DNA of 64,000 bases from an uncultured Chloroflexia bacterium (GTDB lineage: Bacteria; Chloroflexota; Limnocylindria; Limnocylindrales; CSP1-4): assembly GCA_963768655.1 (NCBI GenBank), contig CAVYIM010000003.1, positions 160,001-224,000 of the forward strand. Direction: 5' to 3'. Under the pieces are notes generated by a model that was not told the DNA's origin, ran no database searches, and was given only the letters and a program-made list of their open reading frames with translations. The first letter of the stretch is position 1, and each line of letters starts with the position of its first letter. Positions 41,051-49,168 of the stretch are shown in pieces. The position numbers were made by a program, and so were the translations under genes.

Positions 41051-41545
41051 CTACGAAGCGGTGGCGCTCGGTGCCGCAGTCGGGGCCGCCGTGACCGAAG
41101 CGGTCGGCGTCGCGGCCGGAGTCGGCGTCGCAACCGGCGTCGGGGTTGGCACCGGCGTCGGCGTCGCGGGCGGAGGCGAGTAGGTCTCCAGGTTCAGTGG
41201 CGGCAACGTGGGAACTGCCCCGGCGGGCCAGACCGACACCACGTACGAGCCTGCGAGGATCGCGACCAGGCCCACGGCGCACACCAGGGCGAAGAGCCCC
41301 GAGGCGCGGTCGTCGATGTGGACGCGCTCGTGCGTCGCCCGAACCGAGCCCTGCGGGTGGACTTCGGCCTCGGCCTCGGCGGAGGAACGACGGAAGCCGA
41401 ATCGGCGGCCGGGCTTGCTGGGCTCCATCGGAGCGCCGGCCTCGGCTTCGTCGCTGGCCTCTAGGTCGTTGTCGAACTCTTCCTCGCCTGGCATGAATTC
41501 GTTGGGCTCGCCCTTTTCGAGGGCGTCCTTGTCCTGGTCCGGCAT
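41051..41545 (-). CDS. Single-pass membrane protein with acidic N-terminus and Pro/Thr-rich tail
   Basis: AGGAG upstream of ATG 41545; one TM; (TP)n tail. Confidence 0.7.
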   Translation of the reverse strand: MPDQDKDALEKGEPNEFMPGEEEFDNDLEASDEAEAGAPMEPSKPGRRFGFRRSSAEAEAEVHPQGSVRATHERVHIDDRASGLFALVCAVGLVAILAGSYVVSVWPAGAVPTLPPLNLETYSPPPATPTPVPTPTPVATPTPAATPTASVTAAPTAAPSATAS

Positions 41546-41778
41546 GCCCTGGCTTCGCTCCTGTGTTGGTGTCGGCACGCGCGTGCCTTGTTCGCCGGGT
41601 GCGGGCTGCCCGCACGATGACGGATTGGGCGCGACCCTCCCGCGGCAGTTTAGCCGGAATCCACGGATCGCCGCTTGCATCTCGCTCGGAGGAGTCCGCG
41701 CGATCATGCGGATGTCGCGCGCGATGTCGGGCGGCGGCACGCCCCGACCGCGCGCCCCGACGGCGCGACCCGGCCGCG

Positions 41779-43617
41779 TCAGGCTTCGCGGATCGCGCGG
41801 ACGGCGAGACCTGCCAGACCCGCAGCCGCGGCGAGGATGCCGCACGCCGCCAGCACGATGTGGAGGCCGAAGATCTGGGCGAAGAGGCCGCTGGTGATCA
41901 TCGCGACGGCGAGCATGGCGTTCACCAGCGCCAGGCGGATGGCGATGACTCGCCCCAGCATCTCGTCCGGCGTGCGCTGCTGGAAGATAGTCTGGCTCGG
42001 CACGACGAATATGACGTTGGCGACTCCGATAACCGCCGCCAGCACCAGCGCCAGCGGCAGGCTGCCGCCCACCGAGAAGAGGACCAGGCACACGCCCACG
42101 AGCGTGAACCCGGCCACGATCGCCGGCCCCTTCGGAATACGCGCCGCGACGGCGCCGATGGCGATGCCGCCGCCCAGGAGCCCCACGCCCATCGACATCT
42201 CGAAGAAGCCGTAGGCCGTGGGCGCGTCCAGCCTCCCCAGCGGCAACGCTGCGACGAGCAAGGGGGAGAGCGCCATCAATGCCCCAAGTCCATATTCGGC
42301 GATCGTGGCCTGGACCGTGGTCGCGAACAGGACCGTCTCGTCGCGCAGGAATCGCCAGCCGGCGAGGAGATCGGCCGTCAGCGACGCGACCGCGCCGCCC
42401 AAACCGGCTGCCCTCGCCCCGGCCTCGCCGCCTCCCGCCGGAACGATACGCGGGATCGCGACCGCGGCCACGAGCGCAGCGGAGGCGAGGTAGCTCGCCC
42501 CATCGATCCAGAACGCCATGGACAGCGCCGGTCCAAGGAACGCCACGAAGAGCCCGCCCAGGCCGTAGCCTGCCAGGTCGCTGGCGGTGTCGGCTACCCA
42601 CATCGCCGAGTTGGCCGTGAGCAGGTCCTCGTCCGGGACAACCTGCGGCAGCGCAGCCGCCCGCGCCGGGCGGAAGAACGACGAGGCGACCGCGATCAAG
42701 AGGACCAGGCCGATGACGAGGCCAATGTGCAGGTTCGCAACGACCGGGATGGCGAATACCAGCGCGGCTCTGACTAGATCCGAGCCGACCATAACCCACT
42801 TGCGATTCCACCGATCGACGAGCGCTCCGGCGAGCGGGCCAACCACCGACGTGGGAATCGTCATCGCGGCGAATACGAGGCCGAGCGCCAGCGGCGATTC
42901 GTTCGTGGCTCGAGCGACGAGGAAGACGAGCGCGATCTGATGGACTCGATCGCCCAGCGAGCTGATGACCTGTCCGAGCCACATGGCCGAGAACGGGCTG
43001 TTGGTCGCCAGCCGAACGTACGGATGGCGGAGCGCCCCCATTCGGACCGACCCGACCGAAACCGACACCAGCACCGGCGCCCGAACGACCGCGGCGAAGA
43101 CGAAGAAAGCCAGCCCCGCTCCGAGCAGCAGGTCGCCGACCGACGCGACAGATTGGATGATCGGGATCGGGATCGGGATGACGTCGGCAAGTGGACCACC
43201 GTGGGCGAAGAAGCTGGCGTCCATCGGGCCGGTCAGCAGGACGTGGAAGCTCGAATGAACGGCAGTCGGATCGAAGCCGGCGGCGGCCAGACTGGGTTGC
43301 CAGACCGGCATCCAACCGCCGTTTACGACGATGGCGATGCCGTTTGCCACGGTGCCCAGGGCGGCGGCCGTCAGCCCGGGCAGGTTCCGGTTGGCCAGCA
43401 ACATGGCTGTGAGTAGGACGTACGCGACCAGGACCAGCCACATCCGAACGGCGTCCGGAATGCCACCGGCTGCGAGGGCCGCGTCCAGCCCGAATCGGGC
43501 CCCTGCAGCCATCAGCAGCACTGGCCACCAGCGCAGCCGGACATCGAGCAGGTTCTCAAGTCGCCCGCCGGCGGCCAGACCCAGGCCAAACCCCAGGAAC
43601 ACGCCGAGGGCAGGCAC
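41779..43617 (-). CDS. Fusion of DUF5317-like membrane domain and MFS transporter
   Basis: N-part GGRLENL, NGGWMPV, LADVIPIP, SVGD; C-part WLGQVISSLGD, GALVDRWNRK, MLGRV; one frame. Confidence 0.85.
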   Translation of the reverse strand: MPALGVFLGFGLGLAAGGRLENLLDVRLRWWPVLLMAAGARFGLDAALAAGGIPDAVRMWLVLVAYVLLTAMLLANRNLPGLTAAALGTVANGIAIVVNGGWMPVWQPSLAAAGFDPTAVHSSFHVLLTGPMDASFFAHGGPLADVIPIPIPIIQSVASVGDLLLGAGLAFFVFAAVVRAPVLVSVSVGSVRMGALRHPYVRLATNSPFSAMWLGQVISSLGDRVHQIALVFLVARATNESPLALGLVFAAMTIPTSVVGPLAGALVDRWNRKWVMVGSDLVRAALVFAIPVVANLHIGLVIGLVLLIAVASSFFRPARAAALPQVVPDEDLLTANSAMWVADTASDLAGYGLGGLFVAFLGPALSMAFWIDGASYLASAALVAAVAIPRIVPAGGGEAGARAAGLGGAVASLTADLLAGWRFLRDETVLFATTVQATIAEYGLGALMALSPLLVAALPLGRLDAPTAYGFFEMSMGVGLLGGGIAIGAVAARIPKGPAIVAGFTLVGVCLVLFSVGGSLPLALVLAAVIGVANVIFVVPSQTIFQQRTPDEMLGRVIAIRLALVNAMLAVAMITSGLFAQIFGLHIVLAACGILAAAAGLAGLAVRAIREA

Positions 43618-43620
43618 CTG

Positions 43621-45012
43621 CTACGGGGTTGCGGCGGACGGAGTCGCGCCGGCCAGAGTCGCGCCGGCCGCCAGGCTCGCGCCGGCCGTCAGGCTCGCGA
43701 TCGAGCCCGCTGCGTCGCCGATGAGCGGCACGTCTCGAACTTCGCCCCGCCCCGGGTCGGCCAGCCCGCGCGCCCACTTGGTTCGGGCGAAGGCATCCAC
43801 GACATCCGGATCGAACTGGATCCCGCCGAACTTGCGCAGCTCGGCGAGGGCCTGCTCAGGCGCGAGCGGAGTCATTCGATACGGCCGCGCGTGCGTCATG
43901 GCCTCGAACGCGTCGGCAACGCCGAGGATTCGAGCCAGCTTGGGAATGTCGTCGCCCACGAGGTGGTCGGGATAGCCCGATCCGTTGAACCACTCGTGGT
44001 GGTGTCGAATGATCGGCAGTTCCGGCGCCAGGTGCGTGACCGGGGAGATGATCTCCGCGCCAAGGAGCGGGTGCATGTTCATGGTCGCGCGCTCGTCGCG
44101 CGTGAGCCTCTCCTGCTTGAGCAGCACCGAGTCCGGCACGCCGATCTTGCCGATGTCGTGGAGCAGGCCGCCCCACTCGAGGGCCTCGAGCTCATCGTCG
44201 CTCACTTTCATCGCCCGCCCGATGTCCATGGCGATCTCCTGGACGCCCTCACTGTGGCGGCTGGTGTACTTGTCACGCCTGTCGACCGCCGCCGCGAGGC
44301 TGCTCACGGTCTGAGTGAACATCTCGCGCACCTCCACGAATCGGGTGTACGCGAGCCTGGTCGTGTACAGCGGCACCGCGAACAGCAGTACGGCCCACCA
44401 TCCCGCCGTCAGGTACATCCGCGCCATGAGCCACGCGACCGGCGCAAGGGCGAGCATGTTCAGATACGCGCCACCTGACGCGCGCAGCAGCTTCGTGATC
44501 GGCTCCCCGTCGCGCAAAGAGACGATGCTGGCAGTTATCAGGATGTTCAGCGAGAAGTAGATCGCAGCAGCACCGACCGTCGCGGCGAAGTCGACCGCGA
44601 GGAAGGAGCGCCATGGAATGGCCTGGAGGGCGAAGCCGGCCAAGATGGCTGGCGTCATGATCGCGCAGTGATTCGCCAGTACGCCGTACCAGGGCAACTC
44701 TCGCCGAAGTTCGCGACGCTGCGTTGTCCCGAAAAGACCAACCCACGCAGCCACCGCGGGACCTCCGAGACTGACGGCTGCGATGACCGGGGCGAACCCA
44801 ACGTCGAGGACGCTCCCGCTCGGCATGCGTACGGCCAGTGACGAGCCGGCCAGAGCAAGAGCCACCCAGAAAACGACGCCAAGAATGACGCCGCCCTGGC
44901 CGCCCTTGATCGAAATCTCTGCTCCCGCGGGGCAAAGACCAACAGCGCTTGCCAGCAGCAAGCCACTGACGAGCGCCACTGCGGCGATCAGCGCTCCCAG
45001 CCGACGGTTCAT
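43621..45012 (-). CDS. Membrane-sensor HD-GYP cyclic-dinucleotide phosphodiesterase
   Basis: AGGAG then ATG 45012; several TM helices; YTSRHS, LHDIGK, HHEWFNGSGYP, ADAFEAM, RPYR. Confidence 0.92.
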   Translation of the reverse strand: MNRRLGALIAAVALVSGLLLASAVGLCPAGAEISIKGGQGGVILGVVFWVALALAGSSLAVRMPSGSVLDVGFAPVIAAVSLGGPAVAAWVGLFGTTQRRELRRELPWYGVLANHCAIMTPAILAGFALQAIPWRSFLAVDFAATVGAAAIYFSLNILITASIVSLRDGEPITKLLRASGGAYLNMLALAPVAWLMARMYLTAGWWAVLLFAVPLYTTRLAYTRFVEVREMFTQTVSSLAAAVDRRDKYTSRHSEGVQEIAMDIGRAMKVSDDELEALEWGGLLHDIGKIGVPDSVLLKQERLTRDERATMNMHPLLGAEIISPVTHLAPELPIIRHHHEWFNGSGYPDHLVGDDIPKLARILGVADAFEAMTHARPYRMTPLAPEQALAELRKFGGIQFDPDVVDAFARTKWARGLADPGRGEVRDVPLIGDAAGSIASLTAGASLAAGATLAGATPSAATP

Positions 45013-45080
45013 CGCCACTCCTAACTCAGGCGCGGCAATCTACCCCGGCCCAAAACCGAAGGGCTATGGGAGAGAGGTAC

Positions 45081-45170
45081 CTAGAACGGCCTGTAACTGG
45101 CGCCGCCGGCGGCGGCGGCCATGAGGCCTGCTCCGAGCACTAGGAGGAGGGATTCGATTCGACGACGCAT
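45081..45170 (-). CDS. Unannotated 29-aa signal-peptide-like ORF MRRRIESLLLVLGAGLMAAAAGGASYRPF
   Basis: GGTGA 5 nt before ATG; basic, hydrophobic, small-residue, short polar tail layout; between promoter and HD-GYP gene. Confidence 0.75.
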   Translation of the reverse strand: MRRRIESLLLVLGAGLMAAAAGGASYRPF

Positions 45171-45387
45171 TTCGTTCACCAAGGTCGGTTGTTGCGCGCA
45201 GGGAGCCACGGTCTGTTGTTTGCCTCGGGGGACACGGGAGTCCGCTCCTGAACAGGGAGCAACGCGCGGTGGGTCGCACTAGGTGCTGGGTCCCTGCTCA
45301 AGTGCCCGAATTCGGCCGGGGCCGCCAAGCGTCCGAGCGTTCTCTTGTCCGGAGGGCGTGACGGAACGACAGCCCCGGACCTTCGGC

Positions 45388-45416
45388 ACGTTAGGAAGCC
45401 AAAAGTAGGGGGTCAA
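45388..45416 (-). promoter_or_regulatory. Sigma70-type promoter upstream of the peptide ORF
   Basis: TTGACC-17 nt-TAACGT on minus strand. Confidence 0.7.
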
Positions 45417-45451
45417 TACGGTAGCTGGCCTAGGCTGGGGGCCTGGTTCGG

Positions 45452-48400
45452 TCAGATTGATTCGAGTGGGGGAGGCTCGATCCCCAGCTGCTCGCGCATG
45501 ACGCTCGCGTAGTGCGCGTACTGCTCGGCCGCAGCAGCGTGGGCGCCCGTTCGTCGGTAGAGCCGGAGGAGGCAGAGTTCGATCTGCTCTGCGTCCGGGT
45601 CGGCCTGCAAGGCCAGTTGAGCAACCGAAAGCGCTCGTTCGAATGCGCCTGCCTTGGTATCCGCGACGACCGCCCGCTCGATTCGATCCAGGAAGCTGGC
45701 GTGGAGGGTGTCTCGAAACGTCGACGCCCAGTCGTCATAGGTGAAGTCGACCGCGAAGCGTCCGGTGTAGGTCTCGGCGAGCCGGGTGACCAGCTCGGGC
45801 GATTGATCCCGGCGCATGGCACCAATGAGCTTCAGGCACTCTGAACTGCGGCTGCGCACCAACTCCGGATCGAGCCAAACCAGATCGGCACGGCTGTTGA
45901 GATAGCCAGCGGTCGCATCTTCTGCCGTCGTAGGTTCGAACACCTGACGGAGGAAGTACGAGGTCTGATTGAGGGAGTTGGCTCCTGCTTCCGGCTCCAT
46001 CTGCGGCCAGAGCGCCTCGATGACTTGCTCGCGTGATGCCGTGAATTGCGGGCGGGTCAGCAGGAAAGTCAGGAGTGACAGCACCTTCTTGCGAATCTCC
46101 GTCCCGGGAACAACCCGGTCGCCGAGGCGCACGGTCACGCGACCGAGGTCGTCTATGAAGGCCGGCGGGGCGAGCCGCCGGGTCAGGGCAAGCCCGGCAT
46201 CGGGGATCCGCAGGCTCTTCCTCTTTGACAACTCTCGCAGCAACTTGATGTCGGTTTCGTCACCGACCAGGTCCAGGAGCTCCGTCGCTCTCCTGATATC
46301 TCCCGGCCTGGCGTCCCCGTTGGAAAGTAACTGACGAAGGGCCCAGCGCCAGCGCTCAGGGCGGAGCGCCGCCTCTTGCCTGACGATTCCCAGGCTGGCC
46401 GCGTCGAGGTCCGCGAGCCGCCTCGTCACGAGTTCCGCCTGTATAGACAGGTACGCGGCGTCGCCGGATTCGAGCGAGCGGACATGGGTCACGAGCGCTT
46501 CGTTGCTGGAAACGAGCGCCTGGGTCAAGCGAATGCTCTTCCACCAGAACCAGGCCTGTTGACGCTCGGCGAACCTCAGGTGCTCGAGTAGCGAACCGGG
46601 GAGACTCGGATCGCCCGGTGATTGGGAGGCGAGTATCTGGAGGCCCAGCGAGCGGACGGCGCTGGAGAATGCGGGAGCCTGTAGATGTATTCCGAGCTCT
46701 GACAAGAGGCTGGTCGCGCGATCCAAGTTTCCATGCTCAAGTTCGAGCCTGGCTTCGACCTGCCGCCAGTACGTATTGTCGACCCAACGCGGGTTGTCCT
46801 GGAATGCTTGCACGAGGATCCGCTGGCCCTCCGCTGGATCCCCGTACATTGCTTGGAGCTCAGCGGCTTCGGCAACGGTCTCAGGCTCAACCCAGCTGCC
46901 CGGGTCGCCGAACGCCGAATTGGCGTGAGCTTGGGATTCACCCCACCTTCCAGCCAGAGCCAAACCCTTTGCCAGGTTCATATGCGCGGCACCAATGTCG
47001 CCGCTGTTCCCCGCGGACAGAACAAGGTTCACAGCTGCCTCGCCAACGCTGATCGCCGCTTGGTGGTCGCCTCGACTGCCTTCAACTATCGAAAGGTTCA
47101 CGAGACTGATTGCCTCGTGTCTCGTGTGGTTTCTCTGTCGGCTCAGGCGAGCGGCCTCGATGAGAGCATCGCGCAGTGCGTCTAGGCTCCCGGCGTCGGA
47201 AGAATCCACCACGCACTTGGCCGCACGCGCAATTGCCGCCAACTCGGGATCGCCGCAGCGGACCAGTTCCGCGCTCGCACTGGAGGACATCTCAGAGTCT
47301 TGGCGCTGGATTCCCAGAAGCAACCTATTCAGTGCATGTGTCATACCAAACTCTGGGTTCACGAGCGCCAGACCTGCCGAGGCTTCCTCGGCCTGGCGAG
47401 CGACTGCCACAGCCTCGTCGTAGCGGCCTTCGGCGGCAAGTTGGCGACTGCGGAGGATGTCGTACCAGGGGTTCGGGTTGGAGTCGGGGAAGCGGGTGAT
47501 AAGGTCCTCGGCCGCGGCAAAGTCGCCGGTGCCGATGATCGTGGGGACGGCGGCGCAAACAACCCGGCGCACCTCGTCCGCGTCACCGGCTGCGGCCCAG
47601 TGGCGGGCGGCGAGGCGCCACGATTGCGGCTCCAGGGCCGAGGCCAGACCGCGATGAAGACCGGTGATCCCCGCCTGACCAAGTTCCGCCTCGAGACGGG
47701 CGAGCAGGAACTCGCGCACAAGTGGATGAAGCCGCCACGACGCAATCGCCCCGGCCCCTCTTGACAGCAGCCCGAGTCGCTGCGCGTGGCCGAGGAGTCG
47801 CCGCGCCTCGGCGACGCCGACGTCGGCTGCCACTGCGGCGATATCCGCGTCGATCTCCGCCAGGAGCGCTATCCGGATGAGGAAGCCGCGCAGATCCGCC
47901 TTCAGCTCGCCGACCACTTCCTCCGCCAGATAGTCGTAGAGGTCGCCCTCGGCGCCGGTCAGGGATTGAACGAAGGCACGAACCTGCGCGGTCGATCGGC
48001 CGTCGACGGCAGTCCTCACCAACTGCAGAGATGCCGCCCAGCCTTCTGTTCGCGCCTGCAAGTCATGCAGAACGTCGGGTTCGAGCGGCTGGCGATAAGA
48101 CTCGCGAAAGAGGCGCCCGGTCTCGGTCTCGTCGAAGCGAAGCTCCTCCCGTCCCAGCTCGGCGAGCTCGCCCCGGGCGCGCAGCGCCGCCGCGGCCAGG
48201 TTCGGTGTCCGCCTGCTCGCCAGGATCACCGTCAGCTTCGCGGGCGCCCTCGCGATGAGGCGCTCGACCACCGCCCGAATCTCCGGCACGTCTTCGGCGA
48301 GGTGGAAGTCGTCCAGAACGATTGCCGACGGAACGTCCCCAAGACAGTCGATCTCGGTGAGAAGCGTCCGCAGGACCGTTTCCTCCCGCGTCGGTTCGAC

Positions 48401-48772
48401 CGACGTTTCGGACAGAAGAGACGCGCACCGCTGGAGCAGTCTGGGGTCCACAGCCTGGCACGAGGCAACCAGGTAGCGAAGGAAGACCAGGCCGTCGGTG
48501 TCGCCCTCGTCCAGCCGATACCAGAACGTTCGAACGCGCGAGCGACGGAGGAAATCGGCGACGAGTGTCGTCTTACCGAAGCCCGCCTCGGCGACCACGT
48601 ACAAGACCCTGCGGCTTGCCCGAGTCTCGAGCCAGGTGAAGAGCCGATCGCGCCGGAGCGTCTCCGGTGGAAGAAGTGGTCTCTGGATCTTGCCGGGGCG
48701 CAGCGGAAAGCTCGGGCGCACGTACTCGGCATCGCCGGCGACCCGATCTCCGGTCCCGGGCTCGACTGACAC
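45452..48772 (-). CDS. Large regulator: MalT-like STAND NTPase, helical/TPR-like middle, C-terminal wHTH-BTAD
   Basis: GAGGAG then GTG 48772; AEAGFGKTT, IVLDDFH, TEGW, YLAEEV; REQVIEALWP, DPDAE, LGIEPP. Confidence 0.85.
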   Translation of the reverse strand: MSVEPGTGDRVAGDAEYVRPSFPLRPGKIQRPLLPPETLRRDRLFTWLETRASRRVLYVVAEAGFGKTTLVADFLRRSRVRTFWYRLDEGDTDGLVFLRYLVASCQAVDPRLLQRCASLLSETSVEPTREETVLRTLLTEIDCLGDVPSAIVLDDFHLAEDVPEIRAVVERLIARAPAKLTVILASRRTPNLAAAALRARGELAELGREELRFDETETGRLFRESYRQPLEPDVLHDLQARTEGWAASLQLVRTAVDGRSTAQVRAFVQSLTGAEGDLYDYLAEEVVGELKADLRGFLIRIALLAEIDADIAAVAADVGVAEARRLLGHAQRLGLLSRGAGAIASWRLHPLVREFLLARLEAELGQAGITGLHRGLASALEPQSWRLAARHWAAAGDADEVRRVVCAAVPTIIGTGDFAAAEDLITRFPDSNPNPWYDILRSRQLAAEGRYDEAVAVARQAEEASAGLALVNPEFGMTHALNRLLLGIQRQDSEMSSSASAELVRCGDPELAAIARAAKCVVDSSDAGSLDALRDALIEAARLSRQRNHTRHEAISLVNLSIVEGSRGDHQAAISVGEAAVNLVLSAGNSGDIGAAHMNLAKGLALAGRWGESQAHANSAFGDPGSWVEPETVAEAAELQAMYGDPAEGQRILVQAFQDNPRWVDNTYWRQVEARLELEHGNLDRATSLLSELGIHLQAPAFSSAVRSLGLQILASQSPGDPSLPGSLLEHLRFAERQQAWFWWKSIRLTQALVSSNEALVTHVRSLESGDAAYLSIQAELVTRRLADLDAASLGIVRQEAALRPERWRWALRQLLSNGDARPGDIRRATELLDLVGDETDIKLLRELSKRKSLRIPDAGLALTRRLAPPAFIDDLGRVTVRLGDRVVPGTEIRKKVLSLLTFLLTRPQFTASREQVIEALWPQMEPEAGANSLNQTSYFLRQVFEPTTAEDATAGYLNSRADLVWLDPELVRSRSSECLKLIGAMRRDQSPELVTRLAETYTGRFAVDFTYDDWASTFRDTLHASFLDRIERAVVADTKAGAFERALSVAQLALQADPDAEQIELCLLRLYRRTGAHAAAAEQYAHYASVMREQLGIEPPPLESI

Positions 48773-48816
48773 CCGCAACTCCTCTATCCCCAGCCGACCC
48801 CCGACCGGCGGGCCGT

Positions 48817-48846
48817 AGGATAGAAAGCCGAACTGGCGCGTGTCAA
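48817..48846 (-). promoter_or_regulatory. Sigma70-type promoter of the STAND regulator
   Basis: TTGACA-18 nt-TATCCT on minus strand. Confidence 0.65.
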
Positions 48847-49168
48847 TCGGATTGACGGCGGAGGCCTGCATTCCCAGATGATGGCGGCGCCCGATCACCT
48901 GCCGCTTAGCTGCGAATGCTCTGGCTTCAGACTGCGTTCAGGCCGGCCGGTGACGGTCGGCCGGCTGTCGCGATGCGGCAACCCCGGAGCGTCACCATCA
49001 CCAAGATCGCACGCGAGATCGCACGCGAGATCGCACGGATGTTCCGGCCGTCCTCGCCGGCCTCGATGGGCTGGGCGAGGTGCCCGCAGATGCCGTGCTC
49101 GCTCACTCGTCCAGCGCTGGAGGCTCACGAGCCGTGTTCCGCGTGCCCCGCGCCGACAGGCTCGCCGG

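Follow-up and report, generated by a model that had tools for sequence, protein, structure and literature searches.

In a 64,000-nucleotide (nt) stretch of DNA from an uncultured Chloroflexia bacterium (GenBank assembly GCA_963768655.1, contig CAVYIM010000003.1, positions 160,001 to 224,000 of the forward strand; hereafter the window, in whose numbering positions are given unless a contig or locus is named), we identified a locus that probably represents one member of a membrane module conserved in the Chloroflexota, composed of a STAND-type regulator with winged helix-turn-helix (wHTH) and BTAD domains, a micropeptide of 29 amino acids (aa), a membrane HD-GYP protein with a MASE9-like N-terminal domain and the membrane domain DUF5317. 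In the class Limnocylindria, the genes for the micropeptide, the HD-GYP protein and a fusion of DUF5317 with a transporter of the major facilitator superfamily (MFS) are, in our estimation, rather likely to be transcribed behind a riboswitch of the cyclic di-GMP (c-di-GMP)-II class and a mini-open reading frame (ORF) of 10 codons. On balance, we favor the view that the locus is a feedback operon responsive to a cyclic dinucleotide, in which the micropeptide acts with DUF5317 at the outer face of the membrane.

All parts of the module lie on the minus strand, in surroundings with a G+C content of about 68% (Table 1). The four co-oriented genes reported in a preliminary description of this DNA are indeed present, as ORFs at 48898-45452 (1148 aa), 45018-43621 (465 aa) and 43617-41779 (612 aa) together with the 29-aa ORF, and the 3-nt spacing given there between the HD-GYP and DUF5317-MFS genes is exact, the HD-GYP stop ending at 43621 and the next ORF running from 43617. 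The regulator and HD-GYP genes are separated by a leader of 433 nt, in which the preliminary description correctly placed the 29-aa ORF and overlooked both an aptamer of the c-di-GMP-II class and a second small ORF. In an alignment of the upstream regions, the elements of the leader follow each other as a promoter-like block, the aptamer, AGGAG with a GTG or ATG start, the first small ORF (uORF1) and the 29-aa ORF (uORF2).

A conserved micropeptide gene and its module

The 29-aa ORF had been put forward as a real gene with a site resembling a Shine-Dalgarno (SD) sequence, and both proposals are borne out, the former far beyond chance. A strict pattern recovers the ORF in 70 of the 80 oriented orthologous loci, with an ATG or GTG exactly 29 codons ahead of the stop in 63 of these 70 sequences, and the SD-like site reads GGTGA, 5-9 nt ahead of the ATG. 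The ratio of non-synonymous to synonymous changes (pN/pS) is 0.65 in frame versus 1.05 and 1.24 out of frame, the entropies of the three codon positions are 1.31, 0.95 and 1.67, and in-frame stops occur in a single sequence of the 70, versus 56 and 11 sequences for the other frames. On both strands of the whole window, the same strict pattern has one match, namely, uORF2 itself; in the 3.37-Mb genome, the background of a related filtered (strict) scan is 0.33 matches per 100 kb, and that of a relaxed scan is 2.46 per 100 kb, mostly sequences visibly unlike signal peptides. The micropeptide is very probably made. It is built like a signal peptide, with a basic start, approximately 14-17 hydrophobic residues, a small-G-A motif and a five-residue tail of the form [S/G/T]-[Y/L/V/F]-[R/K]-[P/G]-[F/L/V/W], and its most conserved positions are A24 (70/70), Gly23 (63/70), Arg4 (61/70) and Phe29 (57/70). 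The alignment shows that the codons for the Arg and Pro of the tail, SYRPF in the window, vary and that AGY and TCC codons are both used for its serine. In one locus (L031), the micropeptide ORF is broken. A match of the extended ORF to GVDTG_CTERM (16.2 bits; NCBIfam cut-off 29) was judged to be an artefact of the hydrophobic stretch and was rejected.

DUF5317 was detected in 92 of the 301 sampled Chloroflexota genomes (a tally that includes one genome, G284, flagged as unpublished), and the 30 best-scoring distant loci were examined, these loci being kin, so that the counts given here overstate their independence. The preliminary description had staked its proposal on comparable small ORFs near DUF5317 and HD-GYP genes and on the co-occurrence of the genes, and both expectations hold. 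ORFs of less than 50 aa and of the same build, which were sought by pattern scans of the fetched loci, are present in 25 of the 30 (a count reached after 14 loci were extended), an HD-GYP catalytic domain is encoded within 1.5 kb of DUF5317 in 19, and a wHTH-BTAD C-terminus is encoded directly upstream in 10. The distant micropeptides share the basic start, the hydrophobic run and an [A/G/S]-G-A motif that is followed by D, N, P, S or G and by a tail of 4-17 residues, often with W or F. Their genes sit before the HD-GYP gene, between the regulator and DUF5317 genes, or after the DUF5317 gene; in five of the distant loci, HD-GYP, MFS and DUF5317 are separate genes, in this order, the MFS being otherwise fused. 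The linkage of the micropeptide to DUF5317 and HD-GYP persists across these differing gene orders and, because it recurs in such distant loci, we consider the four parts to form a real module. Among loci of the window's own genus that include enough upstream sequence, the regulator gene adjoins the HD-GYP gene upstream in 19 of 24, as it does in 15 of 18 loci from other genera or families.

The five distant loci without a micropeptide are L038 and L042, which are cut by contig ends, and L058, L060 and L065. Locus L177 carries two identical tandem 24-aa micropeptide genes upstream of the HD-GYP gene (positions 1645-1719 and 1801-1875 of that locus, minus strand). Several copies of DUF5317 are present in one genome (G341; loci L063 and L068), the fusion module being accompanied by a micropeptide with the tail SLKGF and the standalone copies by one that ends in GLRWWD, which suggests cognate pairs.

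Table 1. Positions of the features of the locus in the window and of related aptamers elsewhere in the genome
Feature	Position	Strand	Description
STAND-type regulator	45452..48898	-	MalT-like NTPase aa 66-626, helical/TPR-like middle, wHTH aa 935-992, BTAD aa 1035-1144
Promoter-like block, conserved	45388..45416	-	TTGACC 45416-45411, 17-nt spacer, TAACGT 45393-45388; from the alignment of 24 upstream regions
c-di-GMP-II-class aptamer, diverged	45259..45343	-	P1, P2, P3, pseudoknot GGGCAC/GUGC; RF01786, 30.8 bits
uORF1	45176..45235	-	SD AGGAG 45249-45245, GTG start, 19 codons, R-P-W and the stop at the end, 5 nt from the following ATG
uORF2, 29-aa micropeptide	45081..45170	-	MRRRIESLLLVLGAGLMAAAAGGASYRPF; ATG 45170 to TAG 45081; basic n-region, hydrophobic core, G-G-A, 5-residue tail
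Conserved block past the micropeptide stop	45037..45080	-	GTACCTCTCTCCCATAGCC 45080-45062, TAGATT 45042-45037; followed by SD AGGAG 45022-45018
Membrane HD-GYP phosphodiesterase	43621..45012	-	Multi-pass N-terminal domain of ~230 aa (MASE9-like) and HD-GYP domain with HD, HHE and GYP motifs
DUF5317-MFS fusion	41779..43617	-	DUF5317 (aa 28-174) and 12-transmembrane MFS of the MFS_3/DHA3 type (aa 207-607); Pfam
c-di-GMP-II-GAG aptamer (L001)	G000:C4:318475-318561		RF03169; outside the window
c-di-GMP-II-GAG aptamer (L002)	G000:C3:684355-684439		RF03169; outside the window
c-di-GMP-II-GAG aptamer (L004)	G000:C6:106745-106827		RF03169; outside the window

A diverged c-di-GMP-II-class aptamer in the leader

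With permissive settings, Rfam detects the aptamer between the regulator and HD-GYP genes as a full-length match to RF01786 at 45343-45259 (E 1e-4; cut-off 53.5 bits), and the P1-P2-P3 junction and pseudoknot of RF01786 are present. When the Rfam structure, together with the pseudoknot, was applied to 23 orthologous copies from the genus, 79.6% of the cells were found to be paired, versus 30-46% with the partners slid. Both sides are altered in 12 of the 26 pairs, a level of compensatory change reached in none of 500 shuffles, and the pseudoknot that joins the P3 loop with the 3' tail, which was also found independently by RNAalifold, is paired in 97.8% of the cells. A covariance model derived from the genus copies has a match upstream of the HD-GYP gene in 16 of 18 fusion loci that belong to other genera of the family or to a second family of the class, and 12 of the 16 scanned syntenic orthologs from other genera or families pass the Rfam cut-off, with 53.6-68.3 bits. 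Because these syntenic relatives are called c-di-GMP-II by Rfam, comparative analysis identifies the aptamer of the window as an ortholog, albeit diverged, of authentic c-di-GMP-II riboswitches. The same covariance model detected no aptamer in the distant DUF5317 loci.

Two peat metatranscriptome runs, each from a different study, yielded RNA-library contigs with full identity to the window over 45224-45314, a segment that includes the 3' half of the aptamer; strand, ends and level are not readable from these contigs, DNA carry-over is possible, and contig depth cannot rank the parts of the genes. Two parts, 45364-45426 and the bulk of the HD-GYP coding sequence, are outside the reach of such contigs and were not used as evidence. 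Adapter-bearing contig ends are located at 45069, 45076 and 45309. No sequencing run contains even a tenth of the words of the window, and neither habitat nor strain is deduced from these matches.

The genome encodes 11 GGDEF genes, which is in line with the favored reading, and carries other aptamers of related classes, namely, three c-di-GMP-II-GAG variants (RF03169) above the cut-off, with 61.6, 53.0 and 63.8 bits (Table 1), and a c-di-GMP-I-GGC variant (RF03167) at G000:C5:520041-520117 (61.5 bits; cut-off 59). In the c-di-GMP-II-GAG copies, the pseudoknot reads GGCCGCC/GGCGAGACC rather than GGGCAC/GUGC; the copy L001 is followed by an ORF of 115 aa.

Promoter-like blocks

The block at 45416-45388 would, by its sequence and conservation, act as the promoter of the leader, a role that we infer from the alignment; the consensus promoter scan did not flag it. 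It is the sole conserved promoter-like block, it precedes the aptamer and uORF1, and it lies approximately 218 nt 5' of the ATG of the 29-aa ORF. The promoter of its own that had been ascribed to the 29-aa ORF is not borne out, the consensus scan having revealed no promoter-like site in the leader. The sole site from that scan, at 48846-48817, falls within the first 27 codons of the listed regulator ORF and, for this reason, the true start of the regulator is probably located further downstream, its exact start codon being uncertain.

Past the micropeptide stop, a second conserved block (Table 1) could be another promoter, an operator or a set of boxes for the regulator. This block begins with GTAC, a sequence that also occurs twice within the upstream promoter-like block. 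For the segment between the micropeptide stop and the HD-GYP start, RNAalifold found no consensus fold, and an anti-SD pairing of CCUCUCUCC with the SD of the HD-GYP gene was considered and abandoned because covariation was wanting. As for the HD-GYP start itself, the ATG at 45012, which is conserved in the alignment, is the likely choice over the GTG at 45018.

The first small ORF and the leader-peptide alternative

A search that made no demand on the end motif detected an SD-preceded ORF of 8-35 codons that terminates 0-40 nt 5' of uORF2 in 63 of the 70 loci, and 60 of these 63 ORFs end in [KR]-x-[FW]. Among the relatives, uORF1 mostly consists of exactly 10 codons, with P-[E/N/D] near the start, and it reaches 19 codons in the window through in-frame repetition of a 9-codon unit. 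Tandem expansions of this kind, with 2-3 units each ending in [KR]-[P/G]-W, were observed in the window and in L086, L094, L102, L108 and L122. The coding signature of uORF1 is weak, with a pN/pS of 0.77 versus approximately 1.0 out of frame in a set selected by the end motif. The tails of the two small ORFs resemble each other (on average, 1.48 of 5 residues are identical versus 0.98 after shuffling, and none of 2000 shuffles is as high); as the loci are kin and conversion or duplication is possible, this resemblance was set aside as evidence. In the three loci with exact tail matches (L121, L126 and L135), 13-14 of the 15 bases are shared as well, and conversion or duplication may account for these cases; the shift from K to R in the genus may reflect G+C drift.

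Given that both small ORFs are located between the aptamer and the HD-GYP start, they might be purely cis-acting leader peptides that couple or stall ribosomes, with arrest at [KR]-x-[FW]-stop, and so relay the riboswitch signal to the HD-GYP start, the peptides themselves being functionless. Short regulatory leader peptides, such as TnaC, likewise act at the stop codon. The fixed length of 10 codons and the conserved end of uORF1, the basic-x-aromatic-stop ends common to both ORFs and the conserved block immediately 3' of the uORF2 stop are all compatible with this possibility. Such a role fits uORF2 poorly, however, because its relatives, which occur in 25 of the 30 distant loci, are riboswitch-free, variously placed and sometimes tandem. 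In addition, the aromatic residue of the distant relatives is at no fixed distance from the stop, a hydrophobic core that remains free of Arg and Pro in a genome with 68% G+C would be unneeded for arrest, and no conserved RNA fold joins the uORF2 stop to the SD of the HD-GYP gene. We therefore regard a purely cis-acting role for the two ORFs together as quite improbable; for uORF1 alone, it is quite possible.

The proteins of the module

Residues 66-626 of the regulator align to MalT (NCBIfam, 215.8 bits, under the equivalog cut-off of 537), and the BTAD domain is detected with confidence (PF03704, residues 1035-1144, 43.5 bits versus a Pfam cut-off of 22.1). The OmpR-type wHTH (Trans_reg_C, 21.5 bits) and a TPR_19 match (24.5 bits) score under the respective cut-offs of 26.2 and 25. 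The combination of BTAD, OmpR-type wHTH, P-loop NTPase and a helical sensor region resembles that of the large regulators of the SARP and LAL types. The regulator of the window differs from these in that the DNA-binding wHTH-BTAD part is C-terminal, behind the MalT-like NTPase, the usual domain order in SARPs being the reverse.

The catalytic domain of the HD-GYP protein is readily recognized (HD_5, PF13487, 129 bits versus a cut-off of 27.2), and the translation includes the motifs LLHDIGK and HHHEWFNGSGYP. The putative affiliation of the N-terminal membrane domain with MASE9 (PF20972, cut-off 24.3) comes from its relatives: the N-terminus of the ortholog in L076 scores 31.6 bits, those in L072 and L177 score 17.3 and 18.3 bits, respectively, and the window protein has no MASE9 match at E up to 10; an Atlas feature search likewise points to MASE9, as a lead only. 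In the part of a preprint that is available (10.1101/2021.11.05.467447), it is suggested that the ligand of MASE9 domains, which include those of TM1467 and HdgA, binds within the membrane. With the MASE9-HD-GYP proteins TM1467 of T. maritima and HdgA of S. venezuelae, as described in that same part, the window protein shares a multi-pass N-terminal membrane domain followed by HD-GYP; it differs in the lack of a MASE9 match, and a linkage to DUF5317, a micropeptide or a riboswitch is not mentioned for these two proteins in the available text. In five loci (L027, L029, L031, L032 and L033, in genomes G015, G027, G003, G016 and G008), the HD-GYP match contains internal stops or frame breaks; these genomes have few contigs and low completeness, and the broken copies may reflect assembly error or gene decay.

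In the fusion protein, DUF5317 (PF17248, residues 28-174, 70.3 bits, cut-off 25) is followed by a transporter domain that passes the Pfam cut-offs for MFS_1 (PF07690, 109.2 bits) and MFS_3 (PF05977, 84.1 bits) at residues 207-607 and reaches no NCBIfam equivalog cut-off for the MFS. The 120 best listed longer proteins related to the DUF5317 domain are all PF17248-PF05977-PF07690 fusions, for which the sources give names such as MFS or DHA3 macrolide-efflux-like. The predicted model of DUF5317, with a predicted local distance difference test (pLDDT) score of 93.3, comprises five helices, the last two of which are separated by a beta region, and the invariant residues are N76, N92, G101, M103, P104, D145, S159, G161 and D162. 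No significant relative of DUF5317 was found in the PDB, either with a sequence profile (0 hits) or with Foldseek (nothing at E up to 0.001), the best VIA-align match being a designed helical barrel (Z 6.3), and 'DUF5317' is mentioned in none of the papers of the library that was searched. By the positive-inside rule and with the cytoplasmic N-terminus expected of MFS proteins, the beta region and most of the invariant residues of DUF5317 would face outward, and so would the G-G-A-tail end of a micropeptide inserted with the N-terminus in. A prediction of the complex of the DUF5317 domain and the micropeptide, made without controls, yielded a median score of 0.20 against a mark of 0.32.

Two invariant aspartates and the NGGxMP motif had raised the suspicion that DUF5317 is an aspartyl peptidase similar to LspA, which was not supported by profile and fold searches. 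In a direct comparison with the clade's own LspA (signal peptidase II/Peptidase_A8), hhalign gave a probability of 0.4% (E 0.14), and the VIA-align matches to LspA structures 5dir_A and 6ryp_A (Z 5.0 and 4.9; ranks 20 and 26) are in the noise range. A canonical LspA is encoded separately in the genome.

How the operon might work

Under the favored reading, the leader RNA would be made from a promoter at approximately 45416-45388, and its aptamer would bind a cyclic dinucleotide, c-di-GMP in the canonical relatives, the ligand in this genus being uncertain. Binding of the ligand would govern access to the SD and start of uORF1, and ribosomes finishing uORF1 would be passed to the micropeptide gene 5 nt downstream. 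Transcripts that continue would express the HD-GYP protein and DUF5317-MFS, lowering c-di-GMP and thereby closing a feedback loop. The micropeptide, for its part, would insert with the N-terminus in and the C-terminus out, so as to present its conserved G-G-A-S-x-R-x-F end at the outer face of the membrane, the predicted site of those Asn, Asp and NGGxMP residues that are invariant in DUF5317, where it could be cut or held as a partner. Within this scheme, the analysis establishes the genes, the fold of the aptamer and its orthology to canonical c-di-GMP-II riboswitches, and the coding signature of the micropeptide with its linkage throughout the phylum; the direction of the switch, the translational coupling, the membrane topology and any contact of the peptide with DUF5317 or MASE9 are the parts that we infer.

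Small membrane proteins that modulate sensors and transporters are well known, for instance, MgrB with PhoQ, KdpF with KdpABC and AcrZ with AcrB. Like these, the micropeptide comprises about 30 aa with a single hydrophobic helix and is encoded beside a candidate membrane partner; it differs from them in its short hydrophobic stretch, invariant small-G-A end and clade-varying tail. Retention of the micropeptide as a single-pass partner of DUF5317 or MASE9 is as good a fit as its release as a signal and, therefore, we commit ourselves only to an operon responsive to a cyclic dinucleotide in which the micropeptide acts alongside DUF5317 at the outer face of the membrane.

The preliminary description had gone further, proposing that the peptide is matured and exported by DUF5317-MFS and then sensed by the membrane domain of the HD-GYP protein, by the helical region of the regulator, or by both. 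Spelled out as a peptide quorum system, this model would have the precursor cut after G-G-A, the pentapeptide (SYRPF in the window) released or exported with the help of DUF5317-MFS, and the signal read by MASE9, by the helical region of the STAND regulator, or by both. The micropeptide does show the n-h-c layout typical of signal peptides, its Ala at -1 being invariant (70/70) and G, A or S standing at -3, and the short tails are constant within clades and vary between them (SYRPF, SLKGF, SFKGW, DSRWA, NITV, PEDGGG and others); moreover, the order regulator, peptide, DUF5317 recurs in distant loci, precursor copies are in tandem in L177, the MFS comes from an exporter family, and uORF1 bears a similar [KR]-x-[FW] tail. 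However, cleavage, export and sensing are putative steps, the hydrophobic stretch together with G-G-A extends over approximately 17 residues and could equally anchor the peptide stably in the membrane, and no oligopeptide importer was seen in the module. In the RRNPP cassettes (Rap-Phr, PlcR-PapR, NprR-NprX and AimR-AimP), the gene for the receptor precedes a small gene for the precursor, and the locus resembles them in that a gene for a helical-repeat regulator is followed by a co-oriented small ORF that has the features of a signal peptide and conserved C-terminal residues. In the window, by contrast, the regulator belongs to the MalT-like STAND NTPases, with an output part of the wHTH-BTAD type and a TPR match just under the cut-off, and is not a member of the RRNPP TPR family with HTH or phosphatase output, the precursor has no pro-region, and HD-GYP, DUF5317 and MFS are present in addition. 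All considered, we find the quorum model unlikely.

A still more specific scenario, which we put forward as speculative and hold to be rather improbable, is that DUF5317 is a new membrane maturase or receptor that cuts the micropeptide after the small-G-A motif, so that a clade-specific oligopeptide (SYRPF) would be freed at the outer face, handled by the fused or neighboring DHA3-type MFS and read by MASE9, by the STAND-BTAD regulator or by both; in Limnocylindria, the system would be gated by the riboswitch, and uORF1 would encode a leaderless peptide with the same C-terminal pharmacophore.

Several observations weigh against the favored reading of a ligand-responsive operon whose peptide acts with DUF5317. 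The aptamer of the window falls under every Rfam cut-off (RF01786, 30.8 bits; RF03169, 29.6 bits), with nothing at the gathering threshold. According to the available part of PMC13715770, recognition of c-di-GMP involves A69, the intercalating A70, and G73 together with the ribose of A70. These positions were placed by spacing onto the motif GUGC-AACCG, and under this putative mapping, which depends on the numbering in that part of the source, A69 is kept in 14, A70 in 13 and G73 in 14 of the 14 sequences from other genera and families, a retention that speaks for the favored reading. In the genus, 12 sequences have A at position 69, 7 have C and 4 have G, whereas at position 73, C is present in 17, U in 4 and G in only 2; the window reads G, A and C at the equivalents of A69, A70 and G73, so that the canonical set of ligand contacts is changed. 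The canonical relatives have in common an alternative helix, AACCGAC/GUCGGUU, just 3' of the aptamer and overlapping the contact positions, which also counts in favor of this reading, whereas the copies of the genus revealed no conserved switching helix; a 9-bp alternative helix suggested by the single-sequence fold of the window is not conserved in the genus and was rejected. Because the contact positions are changed and the switching helix is absent, the ligand and the ON/OFF direction are uncertain in the genus, and it is likewise uncertain that the aptamer of the window binds a cyclic dinucleotide. Compared with the c-di-GMP-II riboswitch (RF01786; structure 3Q3Z in the available part of PMC13715770), the aptamer of the window has the same three-helix junction and pseudoknot and, likewise, lies in the 5' leader of a gene for c-di-GMP turnover; it differs in its score (30.8 versus 53.5 bits), in the G, A and C at A69, A70 and G73, and in the two conserved small ORFs before the enzyme gene.

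Conceivably, then, this genus carries a relic or retuned form of the aptamer that no longer senses c-di-GMP, the main drive of the operon coming from the upstream regulator or from another ligand. Positions 69 and 73, changed and variable in the genus and invariant elsewhere in the numbering adopted above, the absence of the canonical alternative helix, the Rfam score at about half of the cut-off and the presence in the genome of three c-di-GMP-II-GAG variants and a c-di-GMP-I-GGC variant are all in line with this alternative, which has to be reconciled with a fold that is kept in the genus by two-sided pair changes, with an almost invariant pseudoknot and with the window-identical RNA-library contigs over the 3' half of the aptamer. 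We consider such a loss or shift of specificity possible, if doubtful.

The remaining difficulties for the operon with a DUF5317-associated micropeptide are of different kinds. The TAGATT block past the micropeptide stop could serve as another promoter and so bypass the riboswitch, the scan found no terminator-like site in the leader, and the regulator gene is not directly upstream in five of the 24 informative genus loci. No activity on the peptide can be assigned to DUF5317 because this domain has no significant structural or profile relative. Finally, in several distant relatives, the G-A motif is followed by Pro, which also tells against the quorum model, a Pro in this place being ill-suited to cleavage by signal peptidase I.

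Neighboring features

The module is flanked by unrelated genes, those for DnaB and DUF3048 on one side and those for PCMT and a glycosyltransferase on the other. Past the MFS stop, at approximately 41051-41650 on the minus strand, the 3' part of a long spurious frame resembles a real small protein, with an acidic N-terminus, a single hydrophobic helix and a Pro/Thr/Ala-rich tail.

Implications

Regardless of how the micropeptide acts, small-protein genes are placed here inside the leader of a c-di-GMP riboswitch, and two orphan membrane domains, DUF5317 and MASE9, gain a testable candidate partner in the form of an adjacent micropeptide that is conserved across the phylum. An aptamer lineage of the c-di-GMP-II class that has naturally kept its fold and altered its ligand-contact nucleotides, as these are defined in the available part of PMC13715770, would be raw material for new riboswitch specificities. 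If the peptide is a released signal, peptide signaling would be wired to c-di-GMP turnover in an abundant uncultured lineage of soil and peat; if DUF5317 is indeed a maturase or receptor, the locus would encode a peptide-to-c-di-GMP circuit of cell-cell signaling in the Chloroflexota. The gene set points to an undescribed, peptide-linked branch of c-di-GMP signaling.

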